Below, piece by piece: positions 219 through 4,011 of a DNA stretch of 4,011 nucleotides. The stretch's first letter is position 1, and every line of letters starts with the position of its first letter. Origin of the DNA: a virus (Duplodnaviria; Heunggongvirae; Uroviricota; Caudoviricetes); the IMG/VR virus record IMGVR_UViG_2713896779_000027; one strand, given 5' to 3'. The notes beneath the pieces are model-generated. The model saw only the letters and a program-made list of their open reading frames with translations. It had not been told where the DNA came from and did not search any database. The position numbers were made by a program, and so were the translations under genes.

Positions 219-884
219 TCAAACAAAACCAGCCGCTTTCCGGCGTTCATATTCCTGTTTCAGCAACTCAATTGGCGTTGGCCCCGACGGGCGTTTGGGG
301 GCCGCCAGTTGTCGCCGGACTGGCGGAACGCTCAGGCCGTTACTAACATGCTTTGCCCATTTCGTCAGTTGCCGTTCTGCAAGCCGTTTTAATTCCCCTT
401 CGGTCATCTGGCGCTCAATCCCCTTTGAACGCATCTCGAGGCAAATGTGATACAGCACAGGCTGAGACCACGGGTACTTATCACTTCCGTCGTATCGCCA
501 GGACTCATTGCGCCAGCGGCGGTACTCCTCCATCACAGCATCCACCGTCAGACCGAATGGATTGGCTCCGCTTTTCGAAATCAGTGCCACAAACTCAGCC
601 AGGTCCGGAGGCCATGTTTCACCCGCCCGGCAGCGGTCCATGCACTGGCGGCAGACCTGCCGGATTTGCTGCTCAGTCATCGCGCCAATCTGTGCAATCC
701 AGAGCTTCGAAGGTGCGGCCCCGTTCTTCTGGGTCCAGCGGTTCGAATAAACCACCCCCATGAGTTCCCACAGCTTCCAGGCCGTTTCCGTCGCTGATAA
801 ATCCGTTTTCACGTTCCCACTGCTCACGTGCTGCCCGAATTTCCTGAACTGCCCGTGATGCGGTGCCACCTGGTGCTGCTGCAT
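219..884 (-). CDS. lambda P-like replication protein (helicase loader)
   Basis: 221-aa ORF. The C-terminal ~150 aa (from MTEQQIRQV...PDLAEFVALISK... through ...KYPWSQPVLYHICLEMR...ELKRLAERQL... to the end) aligns by eye with lambda P as I remember it (...GQFVAWCREEA...SYPWKSNAHYWLVTNLY...ELRRKAADEL...). AAGGGG sits 5 nt upstream of the ATG at 884. The start is uncertain: from 884 the gene overlaps the upstream O-like ORF by 212 nt; alternative in-frame ATGs are at 761 and 680, the latter giving an ATGACTGA start/stop junction with the O-like stop. Confidence 0.8.
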   Translation of the reverse strand: MQQHQVAPHHGQFRKFGQHVSSGNVKTDLSATETAWKLWELMGVVYSNRWTQKNGAAPSKLWIAQIGAMTEQQIRQVCRQCMDRCRAGETWPPDLAEFVALISKSGANPFGLTVDAVMEEYRRWRNESWRYDGSDKYPWSQPVLYHICLEMRSKGIERQMTEGELKRLAERQLTKWAKHVSNGLSVPPVRRQLAAPKRPSGPTPIELLKQEYERRKAAGFV

Positions 885-1713
885 GGTTTACCCCTTTGCT
901 GACTGGTTTAACCTGCGCCCTGACGTGATTTACGTGACGGGCGAATTTCTGCTCCCACTGAATCTGCGTAAACACTTTCCCCTCCGCTGCCCAGTAGTCC
1001 CGGAAGGCGGCAAGTTCAGCAGGTGTAAATTCTGTCTCCGGCAAAGCCATCCCCCACAACGCAGCCCGTCGTCGAAAATCCCGTGACGGATACCAGCTAT
1101 CGCTCATCGGGAATTTTCCGATGGGTTCGCTCAGGCCATACAGGAATACAGGGGGGGCTGCCTGTAACGACAAAACTTCCTGCTCACTGGTCGGAGCACT
1201 CTCGCGTGCGTTATGTGTGGGGTTTAGATCTTTGGGTTCCTTTGGGTTCCGTGATCCGTTTTTGGGTGTCTTTGATGGAAAATTTGGGTGTCTTTGGTTA
1301 TTTTCCATGCAGCTAAGAGTTCTGTTTTTGGGTCTGTTTTGTGCTGAAACATAACCATTTTCGGTACTGTTTTTATTAACAGCACCAATTTTACCCACCT
1401 TTAAAGACTCCCGTTTTTGGGTGTATTCAGGCTCGGCAACACTTTCTTCTACACCGATAAGTCGGTACACCACAATTTGCTTTGTTCTGCCTTTTCTCTC
1501 ACCGGTATCAACAATTAACCCAATCTCCATCAGGTGTCGTAAGCTGTCCTGCACAGTCTTTTTGTTCAGTTCCGTTACTTCTGCCAGTGCAGATACAGAC
1601 GGGTATGCACACAAATCGGCACCGCACATATCAGCAAGCCAGGTCAATACTGACTTACTGGATGAACTGCCGGTTTTCACCTTTTTAGCCCATCGTAGTG
1701 CATCGATACTCAT
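673..1713 (-). CDS. phage replication initiation protein, O-like in function (N-terminal HTH domain, iteron-bearing linker, C-terminal domain)
   Basis: Long minus-strand ORF (track: 673..1788). N-terminal region (...SVLTWLADMCGADLCAYPSVSALAEVTELNKKTVQDSLRHLMEIGLIVD...) matches the winged-HTH pattern of phage replication initiators. A Pro/Lys-rich linker (TPKNGSRNPKEPKDLNP) is encoded by the repeat array. Lies between the cII-position gene and the P-like gene. Start placed at the internal ATG 1713..1711 (MSIDALRW...), which has AGGGG 7 nt upstream and overlaps the upstream gene by only 29 nt; the 1788 start would overlap it by 104 nt. Confidence 0.8.
   Translation of the reverse strand: MSIDALRWAKKVKTGSSSSKSVLTWLADMCGADLCAYPSVSALAEVTELNKKTVQDSLRHLMEIGLIVDTGERKGRTKQIVVYRLIGVEESVAEPEYTQKRESLKVGKIGAVNKNSTENGYVSAQNRPKNRTLSCMENNQRHPNFPSKTPKNGSRNPKEPKDLNPTHNARESAPTSEQEVLSLQAAPPVFLYGLSEPIGKFPMSDSWYPSRDFRRRAALWGMALPETEFTPAELAAFRDYWAAEGKVFTQIQWEQKFARHVNHVRAQVKPVSKGVNHAAAPGGTASRAVQEIRAAREQWERENGFISDGNGLEAVGTHGGGLFEPLDPEERGRTFEALDCTDWRDD
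1231..1428. repeat. iteron-like direct repeats inside the O-like gene (candidate prophage replication origin)
   Basis: Six copies of a TTTGGGT core, starting at 1231, 1241, 1261, 1283, 1327 and 1416. Includes a perfect 10-bp tandem TTTGGGTTCC x2 (1231-1250) and a perfect 14-bp direct repeat TTTGGGTGTCTTTG (1261-1274 and 1283-1296). Spacings of 10, 20, 22, 44 and 89 bp are close to multiples of the helical repeat. An AT-richer stretch lies between 1340 and 1410. Lambda ori is likewise an iteron array within the O coding sequence. Confidence 0.6.
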
Positions 1714-2236
1714 ACGAACCCCTGGCAGACATTTGTTTATCTGCAAAGTAATATTGGTATTGCTGACGATACGCGTGCTTGAAAGCAATAGCTTTTTCTA
1801 TAAGCTCGTCAGTCTCACGTTCCACAACAACTGGATCCGCAAAAAGCAGCCCGGACTCCACCACATCGCCATATTCTTTGTTTAACCCGGCGATCATGTA
1901 CGTAATGCTTTTTCCGTCAGTAATTTCACAATACAATCTGAAATCGCTGATCCGGATAGCCTCCATAATTGCCGGAATCTGCGCCGTGAATTTGTCACGC
2001 TTATCTCTGGTGTCGATAGCTTTCCAGCGTTCGAATATCTTCACCCGGTTAACGCCCAGCGCCCGTTGATCAACCTCGCCATCATTAAACGTGACGCGTT
2101 GAACATCGATGTTCGGGCGTTCTTTCAGAGCCCAGAATGCTTCCGTGATTAATATCGTCGCCTGCTCCTGTGTCATTCCTGGTCGGCATACCCAGGTATC
2201 CAGAGCCTCACAAACCTGTTCAGTGGTGATTTTCAT
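1685..2236 (-). CDS. hypothetical early-operon protein in the cII position (possibly YdaT-like CII analogue)
   Basis: 183-aa ORF immediately downstream of the Cro-like gene (17-nt overlap) and upstream of the O-like gene. Translation looks protein-like with no low-complexity runs. The only start support is a weak GGGG about 10 nt upstream of the ATG at 2236. Function is assigned from position only; the family call is a tentative recollection. Confidence 0.6.
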   Translation of the reverse strand: MKITTEQVCEALDTWVCRPGMTQEQATILITEAFWALKERPNIDVQRVTFNDGEVDQRALGVNRVKIFERWKAIDTRDKRDKFTAQIPAIMEAIRISDFRLYCEITDGKSITYMIAGLNKEYGDVVESGLLFADPVVVERETDELIEKAIAFKHAYRQQYQYYFADKQMSARGSYEYRCTTMG

Positions 2237-2447
2237 TGTTCAACCGCCCCGCCCGCTTTGCCTTACGATATTCGTCATAAACTTTGGGGTCGTACTGAAG
2301 TTCCCCGCCGGATGCCTCTTGCAGGCGCATCGCGCGACCTTCAGGAACCAGTTCCCCCCATGCAGCAACGCTTGCCAGCCTAACTCCTGCGACATTGGCA
2401 AGCTTTGTTTTGCTGCCAAAAAACGCTATAGCATCAATTTTCAACAT
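2220..2447 (-). CDS. Cro-like transcriptional regulator (P22-Cro/DicC type)
   Basis: 75-aa ORF divergent from the repressor gene. The motif ...IDAIAFFGSKTKLANVAGVRLASVAAWGELVPEGRAMRLQEASGGELQY... matches the P22 Cro pattern (...VIDHFG...AVAKALGIS..AVSQW.EVIPEKDAYRLEIVTAGALKY...). AAGGGG sits 7 nt upstream of the ATG at 2447. A TTGACT/TAGTTT promoter with interleaved operators lies upstream. Confidence 0.85.
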   Translation of the reverse strand: MLKIDAIAFFGSKTKLANVAGVRLASVAAWGELVPEGRAMRLQEASGGELQYDPKVYDEYRKAKRAGRLNNENHH

Positions 2448-2457
2448 ATCGAACCCC

Positions 2458-2522
2458 TTAGATTTTCCTAAGAAAACTAGATCGTAGAGAAACCTAAGTC
2501 AAGAAAAATTAGAATTACCTAA
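2458..2522. promoter_or_regulatory. OR-like operator region: three TTAG-N6-CTAA palindromic sites between divergent repressor and cro genes
   Basis: Site 1 at 2458-2471 is TTAGattttcCTAA, site 2 at 2484-2497 is GTAGagaaacCTAA (reverse complement TTAGgtttctCTAC), site 3 at 2509-2522 is TTAGaattacCTAA. Centre-to-centre spacing is 26 and 25 bp. The sites interleave with both promoters' -35/-10 elements, as OR1-3 do in lambda. Confidence 0.6.
2474..2502 (-). promoter_or_regulatory. PR-like sigma70 promoter for the cro-like operon
   Basis: On the minus strand, -35 TTGACT (2502..2497), a 17-nt spacer and -10 TAGTTT (2479..2474). Operator site 2 fills the spacer and site 1 lies just downstream of the -10. 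A candidate divergent PRM-like -10 TAGAAT (2510-2515, plus strand) sits inside site 3 and would give a leaderless or near-leaderless repressor mRNA (ATG at 2524). Confidence 0.5.
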
Positions 2523-2523
2523 T

Positions 2524-2931
2524 ATGAAAAACGAAACCTTCGGTGCTCGCCTCTTATACAGGCGAAAAAAATTAAAACTGTCTCAGGCCGCATTAGGTAA
2601 GCTGGTCAAAGTGGCTCACGTAACAATTTCTCAATGGGAAAGAGATGAAACACAGCCAGCGGGGAAGAGATTATTCGCACTGAGCCAGGCGCTTCAGTGC
2701 TCGCCGACTTGGCTTCTTTTTGGAGATGAAGATAAGCAACCAGGCGAACCGATCCCAGATAATCAGCCAGTCAATCTGACAGAAGATCAAAAAGAGTTGC
2801 TTCAACTGTTCGACGCACTGCCTGAGTCAGAGCAAAAGGCTCTGTTGTCAGAGATGCGTGCTCGAGTTGAGAATTTCAACAAACTTTTTGAAGAACTACT
2901 CAAAGCTCGCAAAAGAAGCGCAAATAAATAA
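2524..2931 (+). CDS. dicA: DicA-like HTH (XRE-family) prophage repressor, CI functional analogue without an S24 peptidase domain
   Basis: 135-aa ORF. N-terminal HTH (...LSQAALGKLVKVAHVTISQWERDETQP...) and a C-terminal segment (...LFALSQALQCSPTWLLFGDEDKQP...LPESEQ...EMRARVENFNKLFEELLKARKR...) closely resemble E. coli Qin DicA as I recall it (...LFALSKVLQCSPTWILFGDEDKQP...LPESEQ...EMRARVKNFNKLFEELLKARQR...). Divergent from the Cro-like gene and flanked by operator clusters. The symbol denotes a homologue, not necessarily the K-12 Qin locus. Confidence 0.9.
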   Translation: MKNETFGARLLYRRKKLKLSQAALGKLVKVAHVTISQWERDETQPAGKRLFALSQALQCSPTWLLFGDEDKQPGEPIPDNQPVNLTEDQKELLQLFDALPESEQKALLSEMRARVENFNKLFEELLKARKRSANK

Positions 2932-3006: not shown

Positions 3007-3059
3007 TTAGGTTTTTCTACACAAAAAGCTTGACCATAACTCTTAGGTTATTCTAAATT
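3007..3059 (+). promoter_or_regulatory. OL-like operator pair with candidate PL-like promoter downstream of the repressor gene
   Basis: Site at 3007-3020 is TTAGgtttttCTAC; with its 5' C (3006-3020, CTTAGGTTTTTCTAC) it matches the reverse complement of OR site 2 at 14 of 15 positions. Site at 3043-3056 is TTAGgttattCTAA. Between them is TTGACC (3030-3035), with TAAATT (3054-3059) as a weak -10 at 18-nt spacing overlapping the second site. Orientation is inverted relative to the OR sites, as OL is to OR in lambda. Confidence 0.5.
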
Positions 3060-3290: not shown

Positions 3291-3340
3291 NNNNNNNNNN
3301 NNNNNNNNNNNNNNNNNNNNNNNNNNNNNNNNNNNNNNNN
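3291..3340. other. run of 50 N: assembly gap or masked sequence
   Basis: Fifty consecutive n characters, directly visible. True length and content are unknown, and the two flanks may not be contiguous. Confidence 0.99.
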
Positions 3341-3432: not shown

Positions 3433-3651
3433 ATGCAGAAACGAGACCCCGTCATCATCGCGCCAGACTATACCGATGATGAACTTTATGAGTGGATGCA
3501 CCAGAAAATTAAGGCGGTGCAGGACCTGAAATGGGCCAATGAAGCCAGGGCTAAGCAGGCTGAAAATCTGTCCGCTCTGGAGCAGGATATCACCAATCTG
3601 GAAAAAGCAGCGGCATTAAGCATTGCCAGAATGATTACATACCTGAGGTAG
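3433..3651 (+). CDS. hypothetical 72-aa protein, probably 3'-truncated by the IS insertion
   Basis: ATG at 3433 with AAGGAG (3422-3427) 5 nt upstream. Translation MQKRDPVIIAPDYTDDELYEWMHQKIKAVQDLKWANEARAKQAENLSALEQDITNLEKAAALSIARMITYLR is helical/coiled-coil-like. The stop (3649-3651) falls within the first bases of the inferred IS left end. No family recognised. Confidence 0.6.
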   Translation: MQKRDPVIIAPDYTDDELYEWMHQKIKAVQDLKWANEARAKQAENLSALEQDITNLEKAAALSIARMITYLR

Positions 3652-4011
3652 CCTGAGTTTAACGGACACTCCTTCCTGAAATAGAATGGCATCAGAAGGA
3701 GCTAATAATGAGCAGAAAAACCCAACGTTACTCTAAAGAGTTCAAAGCCGAAGCTGTCAGAACGGTTCTTGAAAATCAACTTTCGATCAGTGAAGGCGCT
3801 TCCCGATTATCTCTTCCTGAAGGCACTTTAGGACAATGGGTTACCGCCGCCAGAAAAGGGCTCGGTACTCCTGGTTCCCGCACGGTGGCTGAACTGGAAT
3901 CTGAAATTCTGCAACTGCGTAAGGCGTTAAATGAAGCTCGCCTTGAGCGAGATATATTAAAAAAAGCAACAGCGTATTTTGCACAGGAGTCGCTGAAAAA
4001 TACGCGTTAAT
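3644..4011 (+). mobile_element. IS3-family insertion sequence, left end and orfA (element continues beyond the right edge)
   Basis: orfA-type transposase gene with the characteristic HTH N-terminus and leucine-zipper C-terminus, followed by an A7 run (3959-3965) typical of the IS3-family -1 frameshift site. The -1 frame stays open to the window end. Left terminus inferred at TGAGGTAGCC... (3644), with GGACAC at 3664-3669, by analogy with IS3-family inverted repeats that begin with TG. The boundary could instead be at the TGAG at 3654. Confidence 0.7.
3708..4010 (+). CDS. IS3-family transposase OrfA (IS600/IS911-like architecture)
   Basis: 100-aa ORF MSRKTQRYSKEFKAEAVRTVLENQLSISEGASRLSLPEGTLGQWV...LESEILQLRKALNEARLERDILKKATAYFAQESLKNTR. 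Same layout and C-terminal ...ILKKATA...SLN..R motif as IS911 OrfA from memory. AAGGAG (3695-3700) 7 nt upstream of the ATG. Slippery A-run just before the stop. Confidence 0.9.
   Translation: MSRKTQRYSKEFKAEAVRTVLENQLSISEGASRLSLPEGTLGQWVTAARKGLGTPGSRTVAELESEILQLRKALNEARLERDILKKATAYFAQESLKNTR

Follow-up and report, generated by a model that had tools for sequence, protein, structure and literature searches.

Gene organization of the locus

The window examined here (the whole 4,011-nt stretch of IMG/VR record IMGVR_UViG_2713896779_000027) carries the two early regulators of a lambdoid prophage (Table 1). The prophage is of the PPompW type, whose integration site in STEC is ompW. Two minus-strand open reading frames that overlap by 17 nt together span 1685-2447 exactly, where an earlier note made from the sequence alone had placed a Cro-like gene followed by a 183-aa protein. 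The 75-aa product of the first is DicC; it matches NCBIfam NF007282 over residues 1-75 of 75 (167.6 bits, cut-off 130, 5e-50) and Pfam P22_Cro (49.7 bits, cut-off 30.2, 3.2e-13), and RefSeq names it 'Cro/CI family transcriptional regulator'.

The dicC gene is the first of an early operon that points away from dicA, a divergent gene for a CI-type repressor. Within the 76-bp intergenic region between them lie three TTAG-N6-CTAA operators in an O_R-like cluster, and an O_L-like pair downstream of dicA flanks a promoter-like sequence. The motif has six matches in the window vs 1.17 expected, five of them clustered at 2458-2522 and 3007-3056. The dicA gene is not preceded by a Shine-Dalgarno sequence, and its translation from a long P_RE-type leader might therefore be poor. 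On the other side of the pair, an O-like initiator gene lies directly 3′ of the 183-aa gene, with a P-like helicase loader gene beyond it. The pair thus sits between an operator region and the replication genes, as the earlier note had it.

The stretch is 100% identical to E. coli O121:H19 chromosomes and to other STEC, and among 5426 complete E. coli genomes, 1306 (about a quarter) cover at least 80% of it; RefSeq annotates both genes there. The order CI-like repressor, Cro-like gene, 183-aa homolog and replication genes also occurs in Citrobacter and other enterobacterial loci at an identity of only 35-45%, and the same order is found in Citrobacter braakii L010 and in Rac. Compared with relatives about 89% identical in protein, the conserved 161-codon core of the 183-aa gene has a dN/dS of 0.11-0.13. 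Given this selection, the conservation in STEC and the recurring gene order, both reading frames are real genes and not chance. PPompW-type prophages carry the adhesin gene paa and can be in tandem with Stx2a phages. The present prophage copy is degraded, with an inserted IS600 and frameshifted integrase and tail genes, so the circuit may be silent in its host.

Table 1. Features of the dicA-dicC early region, in window coordinates
Feature	Position	Strand	Basis
λ P-like helicase loader gene	219..680	-	Pfam Phage_lambda_P 9.5e-17; PHROG 109 2.8e-62; RefSeq start
Replication initiator gene, O-like N-terminus and DnaT-like C-terminal domain	673..1713	-	PHROG 1032 'replication initiation protein' 1.1e-90; Pfam DnaT 1e-16; RefSeq coordinates
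183-aa gene (ATG), long-form YdaT family (YdfX type), in λ cII position	1685..2236	-	ORF
Replication-module-specific tail, codons 162-183 and stop	1685..1753	-	mosaic breakpoint ~1754
Extra C-terminal helix PVVVERETDELIEKAIAFKHAYRQQYQ, codons 135-161	1754..1834	-	alignments A6 and A7; helical at low confidence
Putative equivalent of YdaT tetramerization helix alpha-6, codons 109-134	1835..1912	-	MAFFT alignment with CP-933P YdaT SSEYYREIVERRDRLVKDVDDFVASAVVLYD
N-terminal POU-like helix-turn-helix DNA-binding domain, codons 1-97	1946..2236	-	AF2 model; aligns to YdaT residues 3-98
Predicted recognition helix QRALGVNRVKIFERW, codons 57-71, ending in R70-W71	2024..2068	-	AF2 model, alignments
dicC (ATG), Cro-type repressor gene, 75 aa	2220..2447	-	ORF; NCBIfam DicC, Pfam P22_Cro
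YdaT-box-like inverted repeat, predicted site of the 183-aa protein	2227..2242		minus strand TGAAC-AATGAA-AATCA; ATG (2234-2236) in spacer
Predicted -10 hexamer TACGAT of P_RE-like promoter	2264..2269	+	cross-locus spacing from box
O_R-like operator cluster, three TTAG-N6-CTAA	2458-2471, 2484-2497, 2509-2522		motif search
dicA, CI-type repressor gene, 135 aa, divergent from dicC	2524..2931	+	NCBIfam DicA 1.6e-72, 241.6 bits (cut-off 101); Pfam HTH_3 4.3e-14
O_L-like operator pair, TTAG-N6-CTAA	3007-3020, 3043-3056		motif search
Promoter-like TTGACC-18-TAAATT	3030-3059	+	promoter scan

Family and fold of the 183-aa protein

The earlier note had wondered whether the 183-aa protein might form a distinct family, and had proposed a Pfam profile search and a structure prediction to look for an HTH domain. 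The Pfam search placed it just above the cut-off of PF06254, YdaT_toxin (21.2 bits, cut-off 21, E = 4.1e-4, residues 59-131). This is a marginal match, but PF06254 is matched by 20 of 23 long-form relatives (best 3.8e-22) and the precomputed annotation of almost every close homolog includes it. The protein also matches PHROG 163, titled 'CII-like transcriptional activator', at 5e-38. A single-sequence phmmer search of the PDB reached the YdaT chain of 8bt1 only at E = 1.4, below two anti-CRISPR chance matches, and so was too weak; the profile of the protein's relatives was needed, and it matches the YdaT crystal structures 8bt1 and 3c4r at 1e-15. The value from hhalign is 98.7%, with the alignment confined to the N-terminal part (YdaT residues 3-98). 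By phmmer against 1.8 billion representatives the protein found only 60 matches, many of them fragments and none a canonical Rac-type YdaT, which indicates that its branch is small and divergent. Taken together, these comparisons put the protein inside the YdaT family (PF06254), where it forms a divergent branch of long members, and it is no new family. Its close copies (99.9% identical DNA) are already named 'toxin YdaT family protein' in RefSeq, where identical copies are mostly 'hypothetical protein'. No NCBIfam model matched the 183-aa protein.

The AF2 model of the protein is a POU-like helix-turn-helix with a pLDDT of about 90 over residues 1-100 and helices at 5-16, 23-36, 57-71 and 77-97. 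The loop between helices 2 and 3 in this model has 20 residues (37-56), within the range of 9-23 that makes this loop unusually long and variable in the YdaT family (PMC9986795). Residues R70 and W71, at the end of the predicted recognition helix, are invariant in alignments A1, A6 and A7, Rac and CP-933P YdaT included. They correspond to R57-W58 of Rac YdaT, whose H56A/R57A mutant loses DNA binding (PMC11879457). A DNA-binding fold is therefore present, and the only curated models that match the protein are of the HTH-containing YdaT family; it has no enzyme or toxin domain. The absence of such a fold and homology to an unrelated enzyme family were the findings that the earlier note had named as contrary to its regulatory reading, and neither was found.

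A conserved inverted repeat and a predicted antisense promoter

The start codon of the 183-aa gene lies in the spacer of an inverted repeat in the same register as the footprinted boxes of Rac and CP-933P YdaT (TTGAAC-AATGAA-AATCAC here, ATGATT-CATGAA-AATCAA in Rac), and the 183-aa protein is predicted to bind it. A search of viral contigs with a smaller alignment returned only 95-99% identical copies, and the diversity came from queries with distant members; TGA-N10-TCA lies over the start codon in all 90 related loci. Even in 'MITPE' variants, whose ATG is displaced by 3 nt, the N6 spacing of the box is unchanged. The box is the sole zero-mismatch match to TGAAC-N6-RATCA in the window. It is a poor palindrome, with 3 of 5 positions shared between its half-sites, TGAAC and TGATT, and the published consensus TTGATT-N6-AATCAA with three mismatches allowed is not enriched (3 matches in the window vs 2.44 expected). 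Counting consensus matches is thus uninformative, and the case for the box rests on its position and its conservation across loci.

No second conserved box of the kind that looping by a tetramer might use was found across the related loci. Recurrent box-like matches at +262 and +534 proved to be conserved coding sequence, namely the LIPAIL motif and the beginning of a replication gene that the loci share, and a palindrome at 2100-2115 was rejected as a second box because its position is not conserved.

On the strand opposite the 183-aa gene, a TACGAT hexamer lies 21 nt from the box. Of 28 independent clusters of upstream sequence, 27 have an antisense TANNNT at precisely this distance of 21-22 nt, where other offsets average about 0.7, and the equivalent place is occupied by TATGAT in Rac and TACAAT in CP-933P; the spacing is conserved in every YdaT branch, these two included. 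If this hexamer is the -10 element of a P_RE-like promoter, plus-strand transcription would start near 2276, with the box centered at -41.5, and the RNA would cross dicC in antisense on its way to dicA. A generic sigma-70 scan predicted no plus-strand promoter at 2264, which counts against one there but is also what a promoter that needs an activator and has a poor -35 region would give.

In published reporter assays of both CP-933P and Rac, YdaT activated a promoter that faces the repressor gene. The Rac study places its YdaT-responsive promoter about 190 bp from the box and not adjacent to it, which counts against a box-adjacent model. The YdaT box may nevertheless be centered at -41.5 or -42.5 of a promoter antisense to cro, which differs from the published Rac model. 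The half-site type also tracks the recognition helix: TGAAC/GATCA occurs with NR[VI][KN] (that is, NR[IV][NK]), and TGATT/AATCA with NKQQ or NTQK, so that there may be specificity classes within the family. That both proposals hold jointly, with the box as the class-II-type activator site of a box-adjacent promoter and at least two DNA-specificity classes, is a tentative view to which we give slightly less than even odds. If the two classes are real, these proteins would be CII analogs with their own form of heteroimmunity, and the box in the window would be a hybrid of both half-site types.

The position of the box could also suit a protein that is mainly a repressor or roadblock, stopping early read-through into its own gene and the O- and P-like genes, with the antisense promoter incidental. 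The box covers the ATG and ribosome-binding region of the gene in every locus, the structure paper terms YdaT a 'repressor' whose footprint spreads to about 95 nt (PMC9986795), and Rac YdaT also binds over the ydaS promoter. We nonetheless think it unlikely that this is the main role, because it leaves the strictly placed opposite-strand TANNNT unexplained, whereas this spacing fits an activator site that overlaps a -35 region; moreover, the Rac and CP-933P reporters show leftward transcription being activated, and mutation of the Rac box changed ydaT expression little. The roadblock and activator roles are not mutually exclusive.

The C-terminal half and the origin of the extra length

The 183-aa protein is longer than Rac YdaT (140 aa), as the earlier note had remarked, and the extra length is accounted for by a longer loop between helices 2 and 3, a conserved C-terminal helix (135-161) and a 22-residue junction tail. 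Residues 109-134, which lie partly within the Pfam match, are aligned with alpha-6 of CP-933P YdaT by MAFFT only; sequence searches, hhalign among them, did not reach alpha-6. Both this segment and 135-181 are predicted helical at low confidence (pLDDT 50-70; 56-70 over 109-134). From the alpha-6 alignment we infer that the protein may oligomerize. The helix at 135-161 is conserved in the long-form branch, with an F-E-R-E-C-D-E-A motif, and is without counterpart in Rac and CP-933P YdaT. An assignment in which 98-134 was an inserted subdomain and 135-161 was alpha-6 was reversed by the Pfam envelope and the alignment with these two proteins.

Together with the stop codon, the final 22 codons share 29 nt with the O-like gene, whose ATG is at 1713. 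Phages HannyBb, PhiR42_1 and mEp460 resemble the locus in DNA sequence as far as window position 1754 (query position 70), the alignment with loci L004, L007 and L009 parts after CAGCAATACCAA, and 173-aa variants have a different tail. This tail thus arose where the immunity module recombined onto the present replication module.

One might ask whether the whole 183-aa frame is a remnant without present function, decaying or chimeric, that a recombination event in a defective prophage happened to lengthen. Its last 22 codons do come from the junction and vary with the replication module, its K-12 copy YdfX is truncated to 96 aa, many relatives are frameshifted in the C-terminal half, and the prophage in hand carries the damage noted above. 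Such a remnant is very unlikely, since strong purifying selection acts on the 161-codon core, which is intact, this core recurs unchanged in complete PPompW and Stx2a-phage-associated genomes (44-90 kb), and all family-invariant residues are kept; only the tail looks accidental.

Comparison with YdaT, YdfX and λ CII

The characterized YdaT proteins of CP-933P (PDB 8BT1) and E. coli O6 (PDB 3C4R) likewise have a long connection from helix 2 to helix 3, and their recognition helix too ends in R-W. Their genes likewise directly follow a Cro-type gene and precede replication genes. Where cro meets ydaT, CP-933P also has an N6-spaced inverted repeat whose spacer contains the start codon, and an antisense -10 hexamer at 21-22 nt. 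The similarity in protein sequence is weak (BLASTP E = 9e-7 over 95 residues). CP-933P YdaT has 141 aa to the 183 here, a loop about 9 residues shorter, a disordered tail in place of helix 135-161, and no junction tail. The left half-site is TGAAC here but TGATT in CP-933P, and the recognition helix has NRVK here but NTQK there; the partners here are a DicC/P22_Cro-type Cro and DicA, whereas the CP-933P repressor is PaaR2.

Rac YdaT (b1358 of E. coli K-12, with partners YdaS and RacR) has the same operon logic, box register and R-W pair, and when it binds the box, more transcription proceeds in the direction of the repressor gene. BLASTP aligns it with the 183-aa protein only over 29 residues around the recognition helix (E = 2e-5). 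Rac YdaT also binds elsewhere, between racR and ydaS and at host rcsA, and is toxic upon expression; no comparable extra site was found in the present locus.

YdfX of the K-12 Qin prophage (b1568), called the 'Qin prophage YdaT homolog' in a 2025 paper, is the direct counterpart of the 183-aa protein and is 86% identical to its residues 1-93. Qin DicC and DicA are likewise direct counterparts of the proteins in the window, which match their NCBIfam models end to end, and the Qin locus retains the same box and the same ATCGTA hexamer. The K-12 gene is without the whole C-terminal half and its replication genes are gone, whereas the gene in the window is full length and stands in a lambdoid early operon.

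In λ, the CII site at the cro/cII junction overlaps the -35 region of the weak promoter P_RE, whose transcript runs antisense to cro and into the repressor gene. The 183-aa gene is like cII in lying after cro and before O and P and in encoding a predicted tetramer with an HTH, probably an activator. It did not match Pfam Phage_CII at E <= 0.1, and the 'CII-like' of the PHROG title is a functional name. Moreover, the λ CII site is a direct repeat, TTGC-N6-TTGC, whereas the predicted site here is an inverted repeat; with one mismatch allowed the direct repeat has 7 matches in the window vs 6.19 expected, and none at 2200-2300. The 183-aa protein is an analog of λ CII and not a member of its family.

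These comparisons also bear on the names 'YdaT_toxin' and 'YdaS_toxin' in Pfam and on the RefSeq name of the close copies, which suggest a YdaS/YdaT-like type II toxin-antitoxin module, with the 183-aa protein as toxin and the 75-aa HTH protein as antitoxin and autorepressor. The two genes are indeed small, adjacent and overlapping, and overexpression of Rac YdaT is reported to cause filamentation and death, but such a module is scarcely credible here: the fold of the 183-aa protein is a DNA-binding HTH, with neither an enzymatic or toxin domain nor a PADLOC (defense system) match, DicC, which was also without a PADLOC match, is below threshold for YdaS_toxin (18.8 vs 30 bits) and clear for P22_Cro and DicC, the pair is not self-contained, with overlapping reading frames that run into the O and P genes and operators shared with the divergent repressor gene, CP-933P YdaT is reported to be non-toxic and to activate a P_RE-like promoter, and the toxicity of Rac YdaT is attributed to transcriptional effects on rcsA. 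The DicC match, the R-W pair and the conserved box agree with the earlier note's view of a Cro-like regulator with a second one in the cII slot.

Proposed role and significance

Our preferred reading, to which we give a probability of roughly 0.78, is that of a lambdoid early regulator pair in which the 183-aa protein is a CII-type activator acting at its own start codon. An early promoter in the dicA-dicC operator region would drive one minus-strand operon of dicC, the 183-aa gene and the O- and P-like genes. The long-form YdaT-family transcription factor made from it would fill the role of λ CII; its POU-like helix-turn-helix would recognize TGAAC-N6-AATCA at 2227-2242, probably as a dimer of a tetramer joined by the C-terminal helices. 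Bound about 41.5 bp upstream of the predicted start, it would recruit RNA polymerase to an otherwise weak promoter, and the plus-strand transcript, antisense to dicC, would extend into dicA. More repressor and less Cro would result, favoring the establishment or maintenance of lysogeny.

The pair of DicC and a YdaT/YdfX-family protein is real but ordinary and already annotated, and the PPompW circuit raises no new question. Two by-products are modestly useful, namely a position for the YdaT-dependent promoter that can be tested across the family and a rule linking recognition-helix residues to operator half-sites. An apt name for the gene is CII-like (YdaT/YdfX family) transcriptional regulator, and both 'toxin' and 'hypothetical protein' are misleading for a gene that roughly one complete E. 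coli genome in four carries and that lies beside Stx2a phages in STEC. There the pair would control whether PPompW-type prophages stay silent, and it is in this way relevant to prophage induction in STEC.

Gene organization

Coordinates 1685–2447 are filled exactly by two overlapping minus-strand ORFs. The 75-aa protein is the Cro-type DicC (NCBIfam 167.6 bits, cut-off 130; Pfam P22_Cro, 3e-13), and the product of the divergent gene is the CI-type repressor DicA (NCBIfam 241.6 bits, cut-off 101). The motif TTAG-N6-CTAA occurs six times in the window against 1.17 expected, and five of these matches are clustered in two places. The order of the ORFs, the two operator clusters and the matches of the adjoining genes to replication families (PHROG 1032, Pfam DnaT, lambda P) therefore bear out the setting given by the earlier note, with the pair flanked by the operator region on one side and the replication genes on the other.

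Features of the window
Feature	Position	Strand	Remarks
P-like gene	219–680	-	lambda P family match; start 680 per RefSeq
O-like gene, replication initiator	673–1713	-	PHROG 1032, Pfam DnaT
183-aa gene	1685–2236	-	ORF listing; 17 nt in common with DicC ORF
Mosaic breakpoint	~1754		within 3′ end of 183-aa gene (window 1713–1754)
14-bp palindrome	2101–2114		window 2100–2115
DicC gene	2220–2447	-	75 aa, ORF listing
YdaT-box-like repeat	2226–2243	-	TTGAAC-AATGAA-AATCAC
Predicted -10 hexamer	2264–2269	+	TACGAT; 21–22 nt box spacing as in long-form loci L093–L171
TTAG-N6-CTAA operators, n = 3	76-bp dicC-dicA spacer
dicA -10 hexamer	2510–2515		TAGAAT, inside third operator
DicA gene	2524–2931	+	135 aa, divergent from DicC and 183-aa genes
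TTAG-N6-CTAA operators, n = 2	downstream of dicA		around promoter-like TTGACC-18-TAAATT
Run of 50 N	3291–3340
ydfC-like gene	3433–3651		last codons replaced by IS600
IS600 (IS3 family)	~3647–4011		orfA from 3708 to window end

The good -10 hexamer of dicA ends only 8 nt before its ATG and the gene has no Shine-Dalgarno sequence, which suggests that the dicA maintenance transcript may be leaderless, like those of lambda cI and CP-933P PaaR2. At the other end of the window, an ATG at 884 would lengthen the P-like ORF to 219–884 and make it overlap the O-like gene, in another frame, by 212 nt at the latter's 3′ end. Overlapping parts of PHROG 15931 (482 positions) are matched by both the P-like and the O-like ORF, and it is possible that O and P are fused or frameshifted in some phages.

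Relationship of the 183-aa protein to YdaT

The earlier note observed, correctly, that this protein is longer than YdaT (140 aa in Rac, 141 aa in CP-933P), and suspected that it might form a distinct family. The Pfam search it proposed gives YdaT_toxin (PF06254) at 21.2 bits with a cut-off of 21, a threshold passed by 20 of 23 long-form relatives, and its PHROG match is family 163 ("CII-like transcriptional activator"; 5e-38, residues 1–170); no NCBIfam model matches it. In a single-sequence search of PDB sequences YdaT is barely detected (E = 1.4), and an exhaustive phmmer search yields no more than 60 relatives among 1.8 billion representatives. A profile built from nine relatives finds both solved YdaT structures (1e-15 and 3e-15), and hhalign gives YdaT a probability of 98.7% across residues 2–110. 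Structure prediction, also proposed, gave an AlphaFold2 model with pLDDT of about 90 for residues 1–100, for which the best four Foldseek matches in the PDB are YdaT chains (probability 1.00) and the next is at E = 0.8. In the alignments R70-W71 is invariant throughout the relatives, Rac and CP-933P YdaT among them, and corresponds to R57-W58 of Rac YdaT, whose H56A/R57A mutant has lost DNA binding (PMC11879457). On the profile, fold and residue evidence, the protein is thus a divergent YdaT-family protein rather than a new family.

Aligned with Rac and CP-933P YdaT, the 183-aa protein has a helix 2-3 loop about nine residues longer, and its residues 109–134 line up with alpha-6, the YdaT tetramerization helix. 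The predicted helix 135–161 is additional and is kept throughout the long-form branch (motif F-E-R-E-C-D-E-A in relatives), whereas the CP-933P tail is disordered there (PMC9986795). The dN/dS of the 161-codon core is 0.11–0.13. A large group of "MITPE..." relatives of about 164 aa has a frameshift within the alpha-6-equivalent region (L138–L171, for example L138 1441–1935; P0082; P0087), and frame +2 brings back the family C-terminus, "...LLGAPLADFERECDEAIYALQALRSGYRQQYQRHDQ" and stop; the shifted form may be a common dead allele. In the Qin prophage of K-12, ydfX lies directly downstream of dicC and encodes 96 aa that are 86% identical to residues 1–93; YdfX is a truncated copy of the 183-aa gene.

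The final 22 residues are confined to the 183-aa variant. Position 1754, at which DNA similarity to other phages ends, is also the exact point of divergence between the 183-aa and 173-aa variants, and the O-like start codon lies inside the tail. The tail is therefore a by-product of the fusion between the immunity module and the present replication module. Since this breakpoint falls inside the gene, different replication modules supply different C-terminal tails, and in all cases, 183-aa and 173-aa forms, a replication gene starts within the regulator tail.

Predicted binding site and antisense promoter

CP-933P YdaT footprints on TTGATT-N6-AATCAA at the ydaS/ydaT junction (PMC9986795) and Rac YdaT on ATGATT-CATGAA-AATCAA, with the ydaT ATG within the spacer (PMC11879457). 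The window's box has the same register as the Rac site. Box-consensus match counts within the window alone are uninformative, so we compared 90 related loci, taken from collections of genomes and of viruses; TGA-N10-TCA lies over the start codon in 90/90. There are two box types, each belonging to one group of proteins: in the "MEIKHE..." group TGATT-N6-AATCA goes with recognition helix NKQQ or NTQK, and in the window's group TGAAC-N6-GATCA goes with NR[IV][NK], which in the 183-aa protein is N63-R64-V65-K66. The window's own box combines the left half-site of its subgroup with the canonical right half-site. In "MITPE" variants the ATG is shifted by 3 nt with half-site spacing intact; what is conserved is therefore the DNA rather than the N-terminal codons.

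A perfect palindrome, GAACATCGATGTTC, occurs within the 183-aa gene at a distance of 127 bp from the centre of the box and resembles a doubled subgroup left half-site (TGAAC-N6-GTTCg). Its position is not conserved among the other loci, so it may be due to chance or be a type-specific second site for a tetramer.

When 28 clusters with independent upstream sequence are aligned on the box, 27 have an antisense TANNNT (sense A-N3-TA) exactly 21 or 22 nt from it; any other offset has about 0.7 such matches. The three bases kept are those that vary least in the sigma-70 -10 hexamer, and they recur in different codon phases, within Cro C-termini that are unrelated to one another. The element is also present in Rac (TATGAT, 21 nt; L172 1652–1657) and CP-933P (TACAAT, 22 nt; L175 1164–1169). 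The window's TACGAT predicts a plus-strand start near 2276 with the box centre at -41.5, and across loci the spacing puts the box at -41.5 or -42.5; the former is the classic location for activators whose site overlaps the -35 region. Here that region reads GTTCAA, a poor -35, and a generic promoter scan called no promoter at the hexamer. In published reporter assays YdaT activates leftward transcription in both CP-933P and Rac. The Rac authors name PracR4, some 190 bp away from the box, as the promoter responsible (PMC11879457); our comparison instead suggests a promoter next to the box. It is possible that the 183-aa protein is a repressor or roadblock at the box, which is compatible with an activator role but leaves the conserved antisense -10 unexplained.

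Like lambda P_RE, the predicted promoter would yield a transcript that runs antisense to cro and into the repressor gene, but the type of site and the protein family are unlike lambda CII/P_RE: the Pfam scan finds no Phage_CII homology in the 183-aa protein, and a window search finds no TTGC-N6-TTGC direct repeat at the junction.

Host distribution and state of the prophage

Chromosomes of E. coli O121:H19 and its STEC relatives match the window at 100% identity. In them the region is part of a lambdoid prophage integrated at ompW ("PPompW" in phage records), which can lie in tandem with Stx2a phages. A "dead remnant" reading would be limited to the 22-residue tail and perhaps this prophage copy, which is degraded, with IS600 present and integrase and tail genes frameshifted. 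The IS600 insertion is present in some O121 genomes and absent from others (e.g. RM8352). The N run corresponds to about 185 nt in matching genomes (record span 4146 nt, window 4011 nt), and the stretch behind it is ordinary coding sequence; the gene, for a hypothetical protein of 99 aa, lies between dicA and ydfC.

In GenBank records of phages with about 89% DNA identity the two genes are labelled "cII" and "Cro", and RefSeq calls identical or near-identical copies "hypothetical protein", "toxin YdaT domain-containing protein" or "toxin YdaT family protein". Legacy family names are the sole support for a toxin-antitoxin module, against which the fold, the gene context, the lack of matches to toxins or defence systems and the literature on homologs all argue. 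The earlier note's view of the genes as a pair of Cro-like and CII-slot regulators is supported. The 183-aa gene is a widespread, already annotated member of a known family; what goes beyond existing annotation is the conserved box/-10 architecture and the specificity split, both predictions from sequence comparison.
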